Shown here in pieces: positions 28,816 to 62,076 of a stretch of DNA of 64,000 nucleotides. Each line of letters begins with the position of its first letter. Positions within the stretch are counted from its first letter, which is position 1. Where the stretch lies: the IMG/VR virus record IMGVR_UViG_2671180984_000014; one strand, written 5' to 3'. A program made the translations under genes and the position numbers. The DNA comes from a virus. Lineage: Duplodnaviria; Heunggongvirae; Uroviricota; Caudoviricetes. The notes under the pieces were generated by a model. That model worked only from the letters and a program-made list of their open reading frames with translations, searched no databases and was not told the origin of the DNA.

Positions 28816-29100
28816 CTAACTTACCTGAACCAGGCCGTCTCCGGACGCTACGGTAGATCCGCATGAAACAGGGTCACCAACGCATACGATCCCTTTACCA
28901 TTGACGGTAAACCATGCCCTGGTTGATATAGCTTGCCCACCGTGCGTACTGTTTCCATCGGTATGCTGTGCATATTGCTTACCATCAACTAACACTTCGA
29001 CTCCGTTGACTTTAAGTAGTGGTTCACTCTCTACAGGAGGCCTGGATGGGAATCCTCCGTGCCCCGAACAAATGCTGTCTTTTGTTGCAATGCTTGCCAC
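28816..29100 (-). CDS. PAAR-like small spike-tip protein (94 aa)
   Basis: Motifs SGHGG, THGG and VCVGDPVSCGS typical of PAAR-repeat proteins. Confidence 0.4.
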   Translation of the reverse strand: MASIATKDSICSGHGGFPSRPPVESEPLLKVNGVEVLVDGKQYAQHTDGNSTHGGQAISTRAWFTVNGKGIVCVGDPVSCGSTVASGDGLVQVS

Positions 29101-29181
29101 GCCATCACCAATTATTTGCTCTGATTTTCGTTATTTTAACTTAGGTTATTTGTGGTCTGTATGGCGTTTACTTATCGCAAA

Positions 29182-29198
29182 ATTGCTCTAATAAATAT
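29182..29198 (+). promoter_or_regulatory. C1-type operator (ATTGCTCTAATAAATAT) in divergent promoter region
   Basis: 15/17 match; precedes the hrdC-dmt operon. Confidence 0.65.
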
Positions 29199-29269
29199 TG
29201 TTTTTTATGTCGTATTTTCGGTACCATTCAGCCATCGCCCTTCAATGGGCATTTGTTTGGAGTCGTCAG

Positions 29270-29554
29270 ATGCAGATGGAGCTAATAAGCCGCAAAGAGT
29301 TCGATAGCCGTGTAACCAGCGGTGAACTCGACAACTTGCAGGCTATCAAGGTGAAAGAAGGCTTTTGCCTCATTGGGAATCAGAGCGGAATAAATCGCGT
29401 TTTTATGCTTCGCCGTACGGATTTGAAGCCATTTGTCTGGAAGAACGAAATTGGTCCCAGCTCATACGCTCAAACGAGGGGGTGCCACAACCTGGCCTTT
29501 TTCTACAAAGACGAGCTTTCTGTGGTTGATATTCAAGGGTTACAACATGTTTAA
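29270..29554 (+). CDS. small protein upstream of the rdgC homolog (~94 aa)
   Basis: Internal Met of track ORF 29198-29554; start uncertain. Confidence 0.3.
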
Positions 29555-30452
29555 GCACTGGAAAAACATTACTATTTATAAACTTTCTCGTGAGGCGGAT
29601 CTGACCGACTTAGAAGATAAAAAGAAAATGATCCTTTTCACGCCATGCGGTAGTCAGGATATGGCCAAGTTCGGTTTTGTATCGCCATTTGGTGATAATT
29701 CTGAAGTTATCGCTATGCATGGAAATGGTTTTATCCTTGTTGAAGCAAAGCGCGAAACAAAAATTCTTCCCCCGCCGGTTATCCAGCGAGCTATTCAAGA
29801 AAAAATTGAAAAACTTGAGCAAGAACAAGCGCGTAAACTGAAGAAAACAGAGAAGGACTCCCTGAAAGACGAAGTTCTGCATTCTCTTCTGCCACGGGCT
29901 TTTTCAAAGTTTTCTGTTATCCAGGCGATCTACGACGGTTCAACTAAACGTATCTATATCAATGCCAGCGCGCGGCAGGCAGAGGATATGCTCGCGCTTA
30001 TGCGTAAGTCTCTGGGTTCTCTTCCTGCTGTTTCCCTGAGTGTTGAAAATCCCATTGAATTAACGCTGACCGACTGGGTACGTGATGGTAGTGCTCCACA
30101 GGGATTTCAAATGGGGGATGCGGCAGAACTTAAGGCAGTGCTTGAGGATGGCGGTATTGCCCGAGTGAAAAAGCAGGATTTGGGAAGCGATGAAATTTCC
30201 ACACACCTGGAAGCTGGCAAGCTCGTCACTAAGTTGGCACTCGACTGGCAGAACCGCATTAAATTTACACTGGACCATAACTTCAGCCTTACCAGCGTCA
30301 AATTTGCGGATGAATTGCTTGAGCAGAACTCTGATATTGATAGTGAAGATGTTGCGCAGCGACTGGACGCAGATTTCTTCCTGTTGACCAGTGAAATTTC
30401 GTGCCTGGTTGATGCTCTGGTAAATGCCCTTGGCGGAGAGGCTAAGCAGTGA
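29547..30452 (+). CDS. hrdC: RdgC homolog (recombination-associated protein)
   Basis: [16 protein letters not shown]...[15 protein letters not shown]...[30 protein letters not shown] aligns along full length with E. coli RdgC; start set at internal ATG 29547. Confidence 0.8.
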
Positions 30453-33400
30453 AAGAGCTGTGCTATGGATCTGTTTGCAGTGGAATTGAAGCCGCGAGTA
30501 TTGCCTGGGAACCGTTGGGTATGCGTCCGGCGTGGTTTGCTGAAATCGAGCCTTTTCCATCGGCCGTTCTTGCGCTCCGCTGGCCCCATGTTGCCAACCT
30601 TGGCGACATGAAAAAACTTGCCAAAAAAGTCTTGGCTGGGGAAATCGAATCCCCTGACGTGCTCGTCGGGGGAACACCATGTTTTACCGCGGGGCATATG
30701 GTTCTTTGTAAAAATGGCTATAAACCAATAGAAAATGTTTGCCCTGGTGATTACGTAGTCAGTCATCTCGGGCGGTTACAACAAGTAAAAAGAGTTGGTT
30801 CAAAAATAGCTAATACGGGGTTACTTAATGCCGTTGGGCAGCCTTTAGGTATAAGAACAACCAATGACCATCCCTTCCTGGCTGTTCGGTGGAAAGCCCA
30901 AAACACCCGGAAAAATGGCACATATTTTAAGAGAGAGTTGTTGTCTGAACCGGAATGGCGAGCAGCATGTGATATGCCGGGATATCAATGGTGCGCTCTA
31001 ACTAATTTCAATATTGCATTTCCAGATATTTGTTCTCGGTTCTTGTCTGAAGAACAGGCTATGTATCTTGCGGGCGCTTATGTTGGCGATGGATATATTA
31101 GGAGATGGAGAGGTAAATCTAAGAAGGCGGTTGTTTTTGGCATAAATTGCCAGAAATTGAGAAAGTTTCATTGCCGCATACCAGAAAACATATTTTCCGT
31201 GGCAAGCGAAATCCGAGGGAGCATCAAAGTAACCTTGAATGATACGTGTTATGCCAATTGGCTTAATGAACATTTTGGCGAGTTAAGCCATGCTAAGCGT
31301 ATCCCTGCATGGGTGATGTCGCATCCATTGCGTCATGTGTTTTTACAAGGCTATCTTGATACTGATGGGACACCAAGTGGTAAAGCGGGATTTAGAATTA
31401 ATAGTGTTAGTTCTGCGCTTGCTTGGGGCGTTGCGGGGTTGTCACAGACTTGTGGTTATGTTTCTTCGGTCAGCTTTATTGAAGTTGAGCCCAAAAAAGT
31501 GATCGAGGATCGCGTGGTAAATCAACGGAATTATTATCAGGTAACAATCTGCCCGCAGAAATTGTCACGTAAATCAAGATTGGCTCATGGAATGCTTTTA
31601 CGAACAGTCAAAGAGTTTAAATCGGTAGGCCTAGATACTGTATACAACATAGAAGTCGAAGGTGATCATTCCTATATCCTCAATGGTGCGGTGGTCCATA
31701 ACTGTCAGGCATTCAGTATCGCGGGATTACGTGGTGGGCTTGATGATGAGCGTGGCGCGCTAACTTTAAAGTATGTGGAGCTTGCAAATGCAATTGACGA
31801 CAAACGGGCTGAGTCATTTCTCAAACCAGCCGTTATCGTCTGGGAAAATGTCCCAGGAGTCTTGTCATCGGCAGATAACGCCTTCGGATGTTTCCTTGCC
31901 GGATTGGCTGGAGAAGATGTGCCATTTGAACCAGGTGATCGACCTGAATCAGGAAAAAGCAACGCGTTCTGGCGGTGGGATGGCAAAACCGGTTGCCATG
32001 TTCCAAAGTGGCCGCAGTGTGGTTGTATTTATGGACCGCAGCGAAAAGTGGCCTGGAGAATCCTTGATGCCCAATACTTCGGAGTGGCACAACGACGCCG
32101 ACGCGTGTTTGTTGTCGCAAGTGCTCGAACAGATCTCGATCCCGCAACGGTACTTTTTGAGTTCGAAGGCGTGCGCCGGAATATTGCGCCGAGCAGAGGC
32201 GAGGGGAAGGAAACTACCAGATATACTTCAAACATCGCTATCAGAACTTGCGATGATACAAACATAATTGCCATGGCACATGGGCAAGGAGGGGCTGAGA
32301 TAAAAACCGATAATTCGGCACCAACTTTGACATGTAACCATGAAGCACCAATTGTATTGCTCGGCGACGGTAGAATGCGCCGTCTTACCCCTGTCGAATG
32401 TGAAAGGCTGCAAGGTTTTCCTGATTGGCATACGTTGATCCCTACGGAAAAGCGTAAAAAAGTTAATTCAGATGAACTGGCATATCTGCACAATCACTAT
32501 CCAGATTTAAGCGAAGAAGAGGCCGCAATGCTTGCAGCTGACGGACCGCGTTACAAAGCGATCGGCAATAGTATGGCAATACCAGTAATGCGCTGGATTG
32601 GCGATCGGATTACTAAGGCCGTATGTCGGCAGAAAGAAGGAAGTGAAACAAAAGAGCGAAAAGTTAAACCAGCGGCAGAATTCGAACGGTCCATATTCAA
32701 ATGGGCTGGTGGAAAATTTGGTGTTCTGGAACAAATCTTTCGCTATTTGCCAGAAGGGAAGCGCCTGATTGAACCTTTCGTTGGTGGCGGAGCTGTCTTC
32801 ATGAATGCCGGATACCAGGAAAATCTGCTAAATGATGTGAATGCTGACCTGATTAACTTTTACAAGACTCTGCAACGCGAGGCGCATTCACTTATCACTC
32901 TGGCACATCGTTTCTTCCAGGACTACAACACACAGGAAGGATACCTGGCAGTACGGAATGCGTTTAACAAACAAGTCTATGATGATTTACATCGCGCAGC
33001 GGCGTTTTTGTTCCTGAACCGACATTGTTTTAACGGATTGACGCGTTACAACCAGGCCGGTGAGTTCAATGTCGGTTATGGGAAGTATAAAACTCCGTAT
33101 TTCCCATTACAGGAGATGGAAGCCTTCCTCGGTGCGGAAGGGCGGTCTGAGTTTGTATGCGGTGATTTTGCAGCGGTGATTGAAGCTGCCGGAGAAGGAG
33201 ATGTCATCTTTTGCGATCCGCCGTATGAACCGCTTCCAAATACAGAGGGATTCACGAACTATTCCGGTCATGACTTTAAGTTTGAAGAGCAAAAACGCCT
33301 GGTGTCTCTGTTGACGGATGCTCATCGTCGAGGTGCAAAGGTTCTCATTACTAACAGTGGCGCGCCAAACATCAGAGAGCTTTATCATGACAGTGGCTTC

Positions 33401-33490
33401 AGAGTGGAACCTCTTTTTGCCAGACGTTCTGTGTCTTGTAAGGGGGACACTCGAGGTGTAGCTCATGACGTTTTGGGTATATTGCTCTAA
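30449..33490 (+). CDS. dmt: bifunctional DNA methyltransferase: N-terminal C5-cytosine MTase (intein-interrupted) fused to C-terminal Dam-like N6-adenine MTase
   Basis: GTG start overlapping hrdC stop; C5 motifs GGTP|[22 protein letters not shown]; Dam motifs KWAGGK and DPPY. Confidence 0.8.
30680..31702 (+). other. intein (341 aa) with LAGLIDADG homing-endonuclease core inside dmt
   Basis: Begins Cys ([20 protein letters not shown]), block [19 protein letters not shown] and [10 protein letters not shown], ends [21 protein letters not shown] followed by Cys+1. Confidence 0.8.
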
Positions 33491-33497
33491 TAAATTT
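33481..33497 (+). promoter_or_regulatory. C1-type operator, exact consensus ATTGCTCTAATAAATTT
   Basis: 17/17; precedes the tRNA/ban operon. Confidence 0.75.
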
Positions 33498-34162
33498 ATT
33501 AGTGTAATATTACCTCAATGAATCGTGATTTATAGAGCGATTTAGCTGTTAGCCGCGACAGGCGCGGCGGTAAGCATGGCTGGGCCTAGTCCTCCCAGAC
33601 AAACCACCGAGTTGCCAGGTTGACCATGCGCCTAAGTGGCAACGCCGAAGTGCGTTACGAGCGTCCAGTTTGCCCATCTTCGGGTGGGCGTTTTTTTCAG
33701 GGTTTTCGTCATGGTTAGCGACTTTGCGGCGGTTTAGAAACTGACCATTAAAGTAAATGCAAACGATGATCTGATGATGGTAGCGGCCTAAGAAGCCAGA
33801 TGCCATGGGGTATGAGTCGTCCCCCGTCAAAAAATCGACCGCAGAGTGTCCCCGTCTGTGTATTAGGGAACGGGGAGGCACAACAGGTAAGGGCGCTGGT
33901 GTGATTAACCAGATGAACGAGAAGGGGCCATCTGTTGGTCAGCGTCCTTTCCTGTTGCGTTTTCTTTTCAGCGTAACAGCGGTGCTTAACAGCACTTTGG
34001 GTACAGTTCCACGAATTTACGGGTATATCCCGTCATGCTGAAGGCGCTAATCACGCTGGAAGCCAGGGTTATGCATCCCCTGTTACCGAATTGCAGCCAG
34101 GGCGCGGTGCGCCGAAAAGCATACGGAGGTGGAAGCCCTCGCCGGAGACGTACCCGGCAAGT

Positions 34163-34237
34163 GATGGTGTAGCTCAGCGGTAGAGCAGTTGGCTGTTAAC
34201 CAACTGGTCGGTAGTTCGAATCCACCCACCATCGCCA
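34163..34237 (+). tRNA. tRNA-Asn (anticodon GTT)
   Basis: Acceptor GATGGTG/CACCATC, anticodon loop CTGTTAA, T-loop TTCGAAT, 3' GCCA. Confidence 0.8.
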
Positions 34238-34242
34238 CTTTA

Positions 34243-34328
34243 GGGGAGTTAGTCCGTAGGGGTAGCGGGGTAGACTGTAAATCTACTGTCATTGCGACTC
34301 GGGTGGTTCGACTCCATCACTCCCCACC
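34243..34328 (+). tRNA. tRNA-like element, anticodon loop CTGTAAA (GUA, Tyr-like) with long variable arm and irregular D-arm
   Basis: Acceptor GGGGAGT/ACTCCCC, perfect anticodon stem GTAGA/TCTAC, T-arm GGTGGTTCGACTCCATC, ACCA end; D-arm does not fold canonically. Confidence 0.4.
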
Positions 34329-34333
34329 ACATT

Positions 34334-34409
34334 GCCGATTTAGCTCAGTTGGTAGAGCAGTCGCTTTGTAAGCGAATGGTCAGCGGTTCGATCCCGTTAA
34401 TCGGCACCA
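34334..34409 (+). tRNA. tRNA-Thr (anticodon TGT)
   Basis: Acceptor GCCGATT/AATCGGC, D-arm GCTCAGTTGGTAGAGC, anticodon loop TTTGTAA, T-loop TTCGATC, CCA. Confidence 0.8.
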
Positions 34410-35282
34410 ACATAACAGGTAAGAGCATTCTCCCTTATGGGGCCTGGCTTAAATGCATCGAGTGCTCTTACCGTTGTGATGAAGTGCAGATCTTAGAAGC
34501 AACCAGAAGATAAGCATCTGGCTTCACAACATAAACCGCAGGAACGACCAATAAACGGTAGTCCGTATGGAGAACACCCCGTTGAGGAAGAGGCCTGGCC
34601 GGAACCGTAACCGGCGACTGGTAATGTGTGTAAATGGAGCGAAATATGTGGGCGTTTAACGGGATACGGGTTGTAACAGCGATTATTAACGGCGAACTTA
34701 AGTATTCACGTTTCGAGACAAATGAACGTGATGGGAAATGTATTGGTGTGCGGTTAGTAAGAGAATACGCATAACAACTACAACGTTGAGAACACTGGCG
34801 TAACGGGGTCATATCCCAATCTACGAATAAATGTTGCGTTGCCGCGTGACAACCAGTGTTCTCAACATTGTGGTGAATGCACAGGCTGATGTGCCGCAAC
34901 TACAGTAGTGCGCGCTTTGCGGGGCTTGCTACAACCCTGTGTCGGAGTTCAGCACCGACCATCACAGTTTGATTCTCTGGCATGAGCATAACGCTGAAAT
35001 AAGTCCAGTCTGGTGCGGTCTGATCACCCGCCGTTAGCTCCACGAAACGGAGCACGTAACAGGTAAGAGCATTCTCCTGTAACGGGTTCATATCCCAATC
35101 TACAGGTCCACCAAGAATGCTCTTTCCGTTGCGGTGAATGCGGCTAAGCGCACGCGGGGAAATGGTTATATCTGTCCATTATTTCTCCTTGTTTCCACGT
35201 CCACGGTGGATAACCAGCCAAAGGACACCGGGAGGAACCCGGCACCGCAGCTTTTTTATTCGTTAAATAATGGAGTGAGAGG

Positions 35283-35519
35283 ATGCAGAACAATCCGAAC
35301 AAATGTCGAACGCTATGGGTGCGGTTATATATTTATGCCGTCCTCTGTTTGATTGTGTCACTGGTTCTGTATGTTTGGCTTTTGCCAAATATGATCTCAT
35401 CTAACAGCACAATACTTGTATTGTTGGGAGTCCTTCTCGCGCTCATTTACCCGGCTTTCGCAGTAGTCTTTTTTCGTGAAAAAACCAGGAAATTAATTAA
35501 TGAAAAAAACGTTGATTAG
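35283..35519 (+). CDS. small membrane protein (78 aa)
   Basis: Two hydrophobic helices; coupled to downstream lipoprotein gene. Confidence 0.4.
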   Translation: MQNNPNKCRTLWVRLYIYAVLCLIVSLVLYVWLLPNMISSNSTILVLLGVLLALIYPAFAVVFFREKTRKLINEKNVD

Positions 35520-36354: not shown

Positions 36355-36430
36355 GGCCCTTTAGCTCAGTGGTTAGAGCTGGCGACTCATAATCGCACGG
36401 TCACCGGTTCAAGTCCGGTAGGGGCCACCA
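36355..36430 (+). tRNA. tRNA-Ile2 type (anticodon CAT; could be read as Met without lysidine)
   Basis: Near-identical in architecture to E. coli ileX: acceptor GGCCCTT/AGGGGCC, anticodon loop CTCATAA, T-loop TTCAAGT, CCA. Confidence 0.8.
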
Positions 36431-60882: not shown

Positions 60883-62076
60883 GTGACCTGGGACGATCAC
60901 AAGAAGAATTTTGCTCGCCTGGCGCGAGATGGTGGTTACACCATCGCACAGTATGCCGCCGAGTTTAATCTTAACCCTAATACTGCACGTCGTTATCTCC
61001 GTGCCTTCAAAGAAGACACCAGGACAGCGGACAGCCGCAAGCCAAATAAGCCAGTCAGGAAGCCACTAAAAAGCATGATCATTGATCACTCTAATGATCA
61101 ACATGCAGGTAATCACATTGCGGCTGAAATAGCGGAAAAACAAAGGGTTAATGCCGTTGTCAGTGCCGCAGTCGAGAATGCGAAGCGCCAAAATAAGCGC
61201 ATAAATGATCGTTCTGATGATCATGACGTGATCACCCGCGCCCACCGGACCTTACGTGATCGCCTGGAACGCGACACCCTGGATGATGATGGTGAACGCT
61301 TTGAATTCGAAGCTGGCGATTACCTGATAGATAACGTTGAAGCGCGGAAGGCCGCGCGCGCTATGTTGCGTCGGTCCGGGGCCGATGTTCTGGAAACCAC
61401 TCTTCTGGAAAAGTCTCTTTCTCATCTCCTTATGCTGGAGAACGCCAGGGATACGTGTATTCGTCTGGTGCAGGAAATGCGCGATCAGCAAAAAGACGAT
61501 GATGAAGGGACTCCGCCTGAATATCGTATCGCGAGCATGCTAAACAGCTGTTCCGCGCAGATAAGCAGCCTGATCAACACCATTTACAGCATCCGGAATA
61601 ACTATCGAAAAGAAAGCCGGGAGGCGGAAAAGCACGCTTTATCTATGGGGCAAGCTGGCATTGTTAAGCTGGCATACGAACGAAAGCGTGAAAATAACTG
61701 GTCAGTGCTGGAAGCAGCTGAATTCATCGAGGCGCATGGCGGGAAAGTGCCGCCCCTGATGCTGGAGCAAATCAAAGCCGATCTGCGTGCTCCTAAGACC
61801 AATACCGATGATGAGGAAAGGCAAACAGCCGTCGGTGGCCCTTCTCTTGAAGATCTGGACAAAGTTGCGCGAGAACGGGCCGCCAACCGCCGCGCGGATG
61901 CCGCATTGTGGATTGAGCAGCGTAGGGAAGAAATCGCCGATATCGTTGATACAGGCGGTTATGGAGATGTTGATACTGAAGGTGCATCAAACGACCCATG
62001 GCTGGAACAAGACCTGGACGAAGACGAGGAGGAAGACGAAGAAGTTACCCGCAAGCTATACGGGGATGATGATTAA
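60883..62076 (+). CDS. pacA: terminase small subunit PacA (pac recognition)
   Basis: GTG start behind SD AAGGAAG; contains the pac hexamer clusters; acidic C-terminus. Confidence 0.8.
61076..61262. other. pac: pac packaging site: seven TGATC(A/G) hexamers in two clusters
   Basis: Hexamers at 61076, 61083, 61095 and 61206, 61218, 61229, 61257 inside pacA. Confidence 0.75.

Follow-up and report, generated by a model that had tools for sequence, protein, structure and literature searches.

A probable intein-containing allele of dmt, the two-in-one DNA methyltransferase gene of the P1 family, in a P1-like phage-plasmid

A P1-type dmt gene

The window analysed here, a stretch of 64,000 nucleotides from the viral record IMGVR_UViG_2671180984_000014, contains one long reading frame that carries motifs of two different DNA methyltransferases, and the question it raises is whether such a protein is new or a known enzyme in an unfamiliar form. 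We consider it very probable that the frame is dmt, whose product is the two-in-one DNA methyltransferase (Dmt) known from the P1 family, here as an intein-containing allele, a judgement made jointly for the expression, translation, splicing, Dam, C5 and homing steps discussed below. The gene is divided as follows.

30449..33490, plus strand: dmt, predicted 1013-aa precursor of a C5-cytosine methyltransferase, an intein and a Dam-type adenine methyltransferase (GTG start, open reading frame, Pfam/TIGR domains, 91-97% protein identity to P1/P7)
30449..30679, plus strand: N-extein (aa 1-77; GC 54.5%), with motif I and the GGTP of motif IV
30680..31702, plus strand: predicted class 1 intein of 341 aa (aa 78-418) with a LAGLIDADG homing endonuclease domain; starts with CFTAGH and ends with VVHN, the +1 residue being Cys419
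31703..32683, plus strand: C5 part of the C-extein (aa 419-745), holding motifs VI, VIII, IX and X behind the catalytic Cys-Gln of motif IV
32684..33487, plus strand: Dam-type N6-adenine methyltransferase domain (aa 746-1013; TIGR00571 249 bits vs 114.85; E=2e-57 to E. coli Dam)

The window is that of a P1-like phage-plasmid, with the same gene order as P1 (operators, operon and pac). Over its full length the dmt DNA is 99.0% identical to dmt of OP279344.1, which has an identical 1013-aa architecture with the intein at the same site, and it is 96-98% identical to P1 and P7 outside indels. At the protein level, identity across both domains is 91% to P1 Dmt (AAQ14041, 754 aa) and 97% to P7 Dam (AAQ07538, 672 aa). 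These two are orthologs that have the operon, the hrdC start overlap, both operators and both methylase domains in common with the window, and P7 Dam also has the same short target-recognition allele; both, however, lack the 341-aa intein, and P1 Dmt differs further in a long target-recognition region and a G74W replacement. In GenBank the P1 gene (AF234172) is labelled "bifunctional DNA methyltransferase", and our statements on P1 Dmt rest on GenBank notes and secondary citations. The structural part of the original prediction, a C5-MTase and a Dam-like MTase in a single polypeptide, holds: the 1013-aa ORF has PF00145 followed by PF02086/TIGR00571, the C5 half had been correctly drawn up to about residue 740 with the intein included (the Dam match begins at aa 746-752), and motifs I, IV, VI, VIII and X of the C5 half as well as KWAGGK and DPPY of the Dam half were all placed. 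P1 dmt and P7 dam have been annotated with this structure, and the fusion itself changes nothing, being already known from P1 as the textbook Dmt. Opposite-strand ORFs inside dmt were taken as chance, being without counterpart in P1, P7 or the other annotations compared.

An operon with a C1 operator at its head

The order Odmt, uhr, hrdC, dmt, Oban and tRNA, as annotated in P1 and P7, is also that of the window, where dmt is the last gene of uhr-hrdC-dmt, lies between Odmt and Oban and is followed by the tRNA cluster.

29182..29198, plus strand: Odmt (former Op68), C1 repressor operator at the head of uhr-hrdC-dmt; one mismatch to the C1 consensus, the same 17-mer being annotated as operator in P1 and P7
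29198..29227, plus strand: promoter Pdmt, -35 TTGTTT at 29198-29203 and -10 TACCAT at 29222-29227, positions carried over from the P1 annotation by alignment
29270..29554, plus strand: uhr, first gene of the operon, 94-aa protein, length and position the same as P1 uhr
29547..30452, plus strand: hrdC, RdgC family (PF04381 RdgC, E=8e-97), 301 aa from the ATG at 29547 that is used in P1; named hrdC in P1 and P7
33481..33508, sites on opposite strands: Oban a/b (former Op72), divalent C1 operator with 0 and 2 mismatches that overlaps the dmt stop codon and controls the next operon; position as annotated in P1 and P7

Odmt, which reads ATTGCTCTAATAAATAT in the window, is a 17-bp match to the C1 operator consensus used (ATTGCTCTAATAAATTT) and overlaps the promoter, and there are 11 operator-like sites in the window vs 0.31 expected. 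P1 and P7 have the same two Pdmt hexamers as the window, and uhr gave no Pfam match. That C1 binds and represses at Odmt is taken from the P1 annotation (GenBank), and the fact that operator and promoter have the sequences annotated in P1 suggests that uhr-hrdC-dmt would be transcribed from Pdmt and repressed by C1 in the lysogen, so that Dmt would be made after induction or infection. The gene had been said to sit behind a C1 operator: the operon does appear to be C1-controlled, but the operator is found 1.25 kb upstream at the operon head and not directly before dmt. The proposed overlap with the rdgC homolog is seen, as the TGA stop of hrdC and the GTG start of dmt share GTGA (30449-30452); translation of dmt would begin at this GTG, and from the start/stop overlap we infer its coupling to hrdC. 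An Rfam scan of 28900-35500 returned three tRNAs only, with the dicF-like region (P1 annotation, downstream of Oban) below threshold.

The Dam half and the pac site

The C-terminal half matches the D12 adenine methylase profile PF02086 over aa 752-984 (E=2e-56, 192 bits, cutoff 22) and contains the Dam motifs KWAGGK (751-756), AdoMet-binding FVGGGA (777-782) and catalytic DPPY (923-926). Residues K9, N120, L122, R124 and Y138 of E. coli Dam, which we take to be its GATC-contact residues, are conserved in the Dmt alignment, and P134 is replaced by Gly. E. coli Dam (PDB 2g1p) aligns end to end with the C-terminal 268 aa at 40% identity, KWAGGK, FxGxG and DPPY included; the Dam part of Dmt differs in being fused behind a C5 methylase, and with the host-type Dam model NF008152 Dmt scores 243.7 bits, under the equivalog cutoff of 441. 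The packaging site is found in the same window.

61076..61262, plus strand: pac, seven TGATCA/G hexamers (3 + 4), at 61076, 61083 and 61095 and at 61206, 61218, 61229 and 61257

In P1, pac cleavage depends on Dam methylation of the hexamers (Sternberg & Coulby 1990 as cited in PMC12707154; also PMC11437467). The expectation that Dam methylation licenses pac packaging is established P1 biology according to the former source, and the window has the seven hexamers. The Dam half would methylate GATC, including that of all seven, and pacase could then cleave pac even where the host has no Dam of its own, a step demonstrated for P1 and, given 97-100% identity in the Dam half, probable for the allele of the window. 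According to PMC12707154, host Dam can replace Dmt, which makes dmt dispensable in dam+ hosts, and a CRISPRi screen scored dmt as non-essential (PMC10695390); given this dispensability in dam+ hosts, the conditions under which the Dam half is selected must be different ones. The broader proposal that the enzyme links immunity, recombination and packaging stands as far as the C1-controlled operon and pac are concerned, and for recombination the one connection is the operon shared with HrdC.

The C5-cytosine methyltransferase half

In full-length numbering the C5 motifs I, IV, VI, VIII, IX and X are present in this order, with a target-recognition region between VIII and IX.

aa 10-14: motif I, CSGIE, a non-canonical form of FxGxG
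aa 74-77 and 419 on: motif IV, GGTP and C419-QAFS, contiguous only after intein removal
aa 466-470: motif VI, ENVPG
aa 547-552: motif VIII, QRRRR
32195..32377, plus strand (aa 583-643): target-recognition region of the C5 half, short allele
aa 644-658: motif IX
aa 706-709: motif X, GNSM

The C5 methylase profile PF00145 (Pfam) matches in four stretches (E=7e-30), because the intein interrupts the domain, and its score rises from 104.9 bits unspliced to 125.8 bits spliced in silico (cutoff 22). With TIGR00675 the unspliced protein reaches 95.5 bits, below the cutoff of 100.65, and 115.5 bits after in silico removal of the intein. The Pfam scores obtained along the frame are well outside what chance would give. 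Since the catalytic cysteine is at the same time the +1 residue of the intein, this N-terminal half, probably an active cytosine methylase, would work only after splicing. Its exchangeable target-recognition region suggests that it may serve to protect phage DNA from host restriction.

The P1 annotation (GenBank) gives C5 activity of Dmt only as "perhaps", and the C5 half could also be an inactive relic or a DNA-binding accessory, with Dmt acting as Dam only and the intein tolerated because nothing depends on splicing. The non-canonical motif I would fit such a relic, as would the P1-like phage D6, which has the Dam part only, and the laboratory P1, whose G74W lies within motif IV and turns it into VWGTP. 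Nevertheless, the catalytic residues are all there (PCQ Cys, ENV Glu, QxRxR and GN), Mannheimia phage 587AP2 and Citrobacter phage Omnitron have homologous C5 methylases with the CSGIEA variant of motif I too, and several exchangeable target-recognition alleles are kept, which would make little sense for a dead domain. Moreover, dN/dS against P7 is 0.14 in the C5 half (33 synonymous and 16 non-synonymous changes, i.e., few substitutions underlie the figure), as low as in the Dam half. We regard a dead C5 half as unlikely.

The intein

Motif IV is interrupted precisely between GGTP and CQAFS, leaving the catalytic cysteine as the +1 residue, and the interrupting segment is missing to the exact codon in P1 and P7, a presence/absence difference of 1023 bp; the intein-free P1/P7 allele reads GTCGGGGGTACGCCT before and TGTCAGGCATTCAGT after the insertion site. 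Pfam matches to Hint_2, LAGLIDADG_3 and Intein_splicing span aa 77-418, TIGR01443 scores 28.9 bits (cutoff 15.6) and profile 14528 gives 34.2 bits on the isolated intein (cutoff 22.5). The class-1 residues are in place (C78, block B T-N-D-H, H417-N418 and C419), and two LAGLIDADG motifs with their acidic residues are present. GC content is 42.7% in the intein vs 48-55% in the exteins, the three codons directly 5' of the insertion are all synonymous variants of those in alleles without the intein (GGA ACA CCA vs GGT ACG CCT), and dS is 0.31 in the N-extein vs 0.09-0.15 elsewhere. Between the window and OP279344 the intein shows 2 synonymous and 3 non-synonymous changes, too few to judge dN/dS. 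A search against solved structures gave weak matches only (Spl DnaX mini-intein, E=0.0015; PI-PkoII, E=0.024), which fit an intein and add no detail.

Judging by its intact splicing residues, the 1013-aa precursor most likely self-splices, with Cys78 starting the reaction, Cys419 accepting the N-extein and Asn418 cyclising, which would set free the 341-aa intein and leave a mature Dmt of 672 aa in which GGTPCQAFS is again continuous. The LAGLIDADG endonuclease of the freed intein probably cleaves dmt genes that lack the insertion, which then receive a copy of it. Were splicing lost, the 1013-aa protein would stay unspliced and act as a Dam methylase alone, in effect a C5 knockout. The Pfam splicing-domain scores are under their cutoffs (Hint_2 28.2 bits, Intein_splicing 18 bits), and a related Mannheimia phage gene with a decayed C-extein indicates that such alleles can degenerate. 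Yet Cys1, TxxH, HN and Cys+1 are intact and invariant across distant relatives: in an alignment of four phage C5-methylase inteins, Cys1, block B T..H, the two LAGLIDADG acidic residues, terminal HN and Cys+1 do not vary. The ORF is also open in all four phage copies aligned (4/4), 152 genomes have intein DNA of 95-100% identity and the endonuclease motifs are intact too. We consider a non-splicing intein quite improbable.

A more far-reaching version of the self-splicing Dmt starts from the identity of the +1 nucleophile with the C5 catalytic cysteine. C5 methylation would be gated by splicing with Dam already working in the precursor, and the intein would be a timer or redox switch at the post-translational level that separates early GATC methylation (pac licensing) from later cytosine methylation in P1 lytic growth, while also actively homing among E. 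coli plasmid prophages; to this combination we give little credence.

That each activity has a protein of its own, with a Dam-only product arising late in infection from a promoter or start within dmt and the fusion not being the working form, is very hard to believe: in the P7 record a late promoter (LPdam2) is predicted inside the gene, upstream of the Dam half, and one P1-like record annotates two genes here, but the predicted -22 element of P7, AAGTTTCTT, reads AAGTTAATT in the window and is not conserved, for which reason the promoter was dropped as a mechanism, the P1 annotation is without it, one unbroken frame is seen in P1-like, Cronobacter and Citrobacter phage versions, and a non-systematic look at the domain boundary noticed no start codon preceded by a clear ribosome-binding site.

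Alleles of dmt in E. coli genomes

Among ca. 480 dmt-carrying complete E. coli genomes, 152 have the intein, i.e., about a third of P1-type dmt genes in these genomes contain an intein that annotation pipelines omit. None of the annotations of intein-carrying dmt genes compared mentions it (the PGAP name is "Dam family" only), the unreported intein drops the C5 domain under the NCBI naming threshold, and in the open-access full-text literature searched no intein was described for dmt of P1 or of P1-like phages. Because resistance genes are often found on P1-like phage-plasmids and P1 itself is in standard use in genetics, the overlooked, probably homing element and the likely, equally overlooked variation in C5 specificity could affect restriction barriers and the interpretation of methylomes, by-products of modest practical value.

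The same intein occupies the same site, with 95-100% identical DNA, in Ro157c2YLVW, RCS47 and >150 E. coli plasmid prophages; unlike in the window, it is joined in Ro157c2YLVW and RCS47 to the long target-recognition allele (1095 aa). The short allele of the window and P7 does not align with the long one of P1 (143 aa), whose target-recognition region is 82 aa longer. Complete E. coli genomes have the short allele in 196 cases and the long one in 243, both with and without the intein. With or without the intein and with a short or a long target-recognition region, the dmt alleles make up a natural 2x2 set, which could show whether cytosine is a substrate of Dmt and in what sequence context.

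Relatives beyond the P1 family

LAGLIDADG inteins at PC/Q are also present in C5 methylases of unrelated phages, namely Mannheimia phage 587AP2 (48% identity), E. coli jumbo phage A4 (29%) and Propionibacterium phage B22 (32%), at the same point (GG.P before the intein, C...VVHN at its ends and CQ after it) and with the same class-1 residues and endonuclease type as the dmt intein. Their hosts are single-domain C5 methylases, whereas the host of the dmt intein is a bifunctional enzyme of an E. coli plasmid prophage. C-5 methylase is listed among the known intein hosts of actinobacteriophages (bioRxiv 10.1101/2025.01.02.630785). Mycobacteriophage "DNA methylase" inteins (ca. 27% identity) were dropped as same-site relatives, being located in N6/N4 methylases (PMC5050341).

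The spliced C5 half is 44-65% identical (aa 4-390) to stand-alone C5 methyltransferases of Bcep22, Vibrio, Pseudomonas and Pectobacterium phages, which are without a Dam domain and have other target-recognition regions, with no intein seen among the matches listed. One-ORF C5-Dam fusions with the same domain order also exist outside Punavirus, in Cronobacter phage JK004 (836 aa, 58% identity) and Citrobacter phage Omnitron (610 aa, 50% identity). Their target-recognition regions differ in length from that of the window, and Omnitron, which has no intein, is a phage of 42 kb, whereas P1-like genomes are more than twice as large.

Dmt and its genomic surroundings

The gene at 30449..33490 (+) is the already known Dmt of P1, its DNA being 96-99.7% identical to that of P1-like phages (Punavirus), with the counterpart called dmt in P1 (AF234172) and dam in P7. 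The AF234172 note on dmt reads "bifunctional DNA methyltransferase", acting on N6 adenine in GATC and "perhaps at C5 cytosine". As both annotations carry the gene, the fusion is published knowledge. The original prediction of a C5-cytosine methyltransferase fused to a Dam-like enzyme was confirmed as an observation and supported in its interpretation, and only two things go beyond the textbook, an intein-bearing allele and an exchangeable target-recognition region, both of known kinds.

The ORF opens with GTG and runs for 1013 codons. Both domains, in an order evident from the sequence, were matched by Pfam and NCBIfam profiles, i.e., C-5 cytosine methylase (PF00145, E=7e-30, split into 4 stretches; TIGR00675 dcm, 95.5 bits for the unspliced protein against a cutoff of 100.65) and D12-class N6-adenine methylase (PF02086, aa 752-984, E=2e-56; TIGR00571 dam, 249 bits). 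Over its whole length, the Dam half can be aligned with that of E. coli (PDB 2g1p, E=2e-57), at 40% identity (104 of 262 aligned positions). All C5 motifs named by the original prediction, as well as KWAGGK and DPPY, could be located.

Motifs of the dmt protein (precursor numbering)
aa 10-14, C5 motif I, CSGIE
aa 74-77 and aa 419-423, C5 motif IV, GGTP and CQAFS
aa 466-470, C5 motif VI, ENVPG
aa 547-552, C5 motif VIII, QRRRR
aa 583-643 (32195-32377), C5 target-recognition region, short form, between motifs VIII and IX
aa 644-658, C5 motif IX
aa 706-709, C5 motif X, GNSM
aa 751-756, Dam half, KWAGGK
aa 777-782, Dam half, FVGGGA
aa 923-926, Dam half, DPPY

The surroundings of dmt follow the P1 layout point for point.

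Features around dmt
29182-29198, Odmt (former Op68), C1 operator, 17-mer identical in P1 and P7
29198-29203 and 29222-29227, Pdmt promoter hexamers
29270-29554, uhr, upstream of hrdC
29547-30452, hrdC, RdgC family (PF04381, E=8e-97)
30449-30452, GTGA, overlap of hrdC stop and dmt start
33481-33508, Oban, divalent C1 operator enclosing the dmt stop
34163-34409, tRNA-Asn (GTT), tRNA-Tyr (GTA) and tRNA-Thr (TGT) cluster, downstream of Oban
36355-36430, tRNA with CAT anticodon, beyond the cluster

The C1 operator expected ahead of dmt is Odmt, placed before uhr and hrdC, and C1 repression at this site is taken from P1 work (AF234172 annotation). The window contains 11 sites resembling C1 operators, where 0.31 would be expected by chance. 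Of the proposed coupling to the rdgC homolog, the GTGA overlap is there to be seen, and translational coupling from hrdC to dmt may be inferred from it. At the other end, dmt terminates within the first half-site of Oban (stop codon at 33488-33490), so that the 3' end of the gene overlaps the regulatory region of the operon that follows. In the downstream tRNA cluster, the P1 and P7 references annotate only Asn and Thr, and Ro157c2YLVW also has Tyr.

An intein in the C5 half

Alignment with the proteins of P1 (754 aa), P7 (672 aa), Ro157c2YLVW (1095 aa) and OP279344 (1013 aa) fixes the boundaries of an exact 341-residue insertion (aa 78-418) between GGTP and CQAFS, within C5 motif IV. Hint, LAGLIDADG and intein-splicing domains (Pfam) match aa 77-418, an intein C-terminus (TIGR01443, NCBIfam) is also matched, and the insertion starts with Cys, carries a block B T-N-D-H and two LAGLIDADG motifs, and finishes with His-Asn. 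Judged by sequence, it has all the parts of a class-1 intein, homing endonuclease included; we infer that the protein splices, and the intein may be capable of homing. The methylase has its catalytic cysteine, Cys419, directly after the intein. Removing the intein in silico leaves 672 aa, the length of P7 Dam, makes the first PF00145 stretch unbroken (profile positions 5-119) and raises the scores of PF00145 (104.9 to 125.8 bits) and TIGR00675 (to 115.5 bits, crossing its cutoff). Such proteins are probably named only "Dam family" in RefSeq because the intein holds TIGR00675 below this cutoff.

With a GC content of 42.7%, the intein is poorer in GC than the exteins on either side (54.5% and 48.5%). 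The codons directly 5' of it (30671-30679) are GGA ACA CCA, versus GGT ACG CCT in the intein-free P1 and P7, all three changes being synonymous, and dS relative to P7 peaks in the N-extein (0.31, against 0.09-0.15 in other parts of dmt). This looks like foreign origin with co-conversion, or like target-site immunity (homing-site protection).

Among 5426 complete E. coli genomes, 152 carry the intein DNA, mostly on plasmids; in PLSDB, 129 plasmids have it. The Dam half occurs in 480 genomes of the same E. coli set, and therefore about one-third of P1-type dmt genes bear the intein. Related inteins occupy the identical position, between GG.P and CQ, in C5 methylases of unrelated phages, namely Mannheimia phage 587AP2 (48% identity, in a decayed host gene), Propionibacterium phage B22 (32%) and E. 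coli jumbo phage A4 (29%), and C-5 methylase is already among the listed intein hosts of actinobacteriophages (bioRxiv 10.1101/2025.01.02.630785). Inteins of this kind are known, and that of dmt adds another case; in the open-access full-text papers searched, no mention of it in the P1 family was found.

In Mannheimia phage vB_MhS_587AP2 (L005 2264-4584), which has the closest intein relative outside P1, the C5 gene is broken just past the intein; what follows CQ is unrelated sequence, and a second ORF then supplies motifs IX and X. Downstream of this locus lies a gene for an HNH homing endonuclease, and upstream is a 301-aa ORF of the same length as hrdC.

Target recognition and probable activity of the C5 half

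C5 methylases owe their sequence specificity to the stretch between motifs VIII and IX. The five aligned Dmt proteins have two mutually unalignable forms of it, a short one of 61 aa (window, P7, OP279344) and a long one of 143 aa, 82 residues more (P1, Ro157c2YLVW), and all four combinations of form and intein presence are seen among them. Therefore, P1-like phages probably differ in the cytosine motif that they methylate. Of the 480 complete E. coli genomes with dmt, 196 have the short form and 243 have the long one; the remainder must have at least one further form or have lost the C5 half. The record OP279344.1, by its label ("Escherichia phage P1 isolate del res del mod") a laboratory derivative of P1, combines intein and short form; in this it departs from the P1 c1-100 reference, whose dmt is another allele.

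Every catalytic residue is present in the C5 half, which differs from P7 by 33 synonymous and 16 non-synonymous changes (dN/dS 0.14, the ratio being equal in the Dam half); small as these counts are, they favour a working enzyme. Its activity would presumably depend on splicing, and it may serve in anti-restriction. In the P1 laboratory sequence (L001 2501-4762), motif IV reads VWGTP, versus VGGTP in the other four aligned alleles (G74W), a change that could weaken the C5 half of that strain.

The fusion in other phages and its link to pac

Matches over at least 80% of the spliced protein were seen in 20 phage records, all but two of them P1-like. C5-Dam fusions that are not P1-like occur as single ORFs in Cronobacter phage JK004 (836 aa) and Citrobacter phage Omnitron (610 aa, 42-kb genome); in the P1-like phage D6 the Dam part stands alone, as does the C5 part in many phages. 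P7 dam has a predicted internal late promoter, LPdam2; its -22 element is altered in the window (32462-32470, AAGTTTCTT to AAGTTAATT), so the P7 prediction is not transferable.

The proposed licensing of packaging by Dam methylation is backed for P1 by passages of PMC12707154 (citing Sternberg & Coulby 1990) and PMC11437467, according to which P1 requires methylation of pac and dmt provides it in Dam- hosts; in an ordinary host dmt was scored non-essential (PMC10695390). That Dmt methylates GATC, and that pac must be methylated to be cleaved, is carried over from this P1 work and AF234172. The window has seven pac hexamers (TGATCA/G).

pac site
61076-61100, three hexamers
61206-61262, four hexamers
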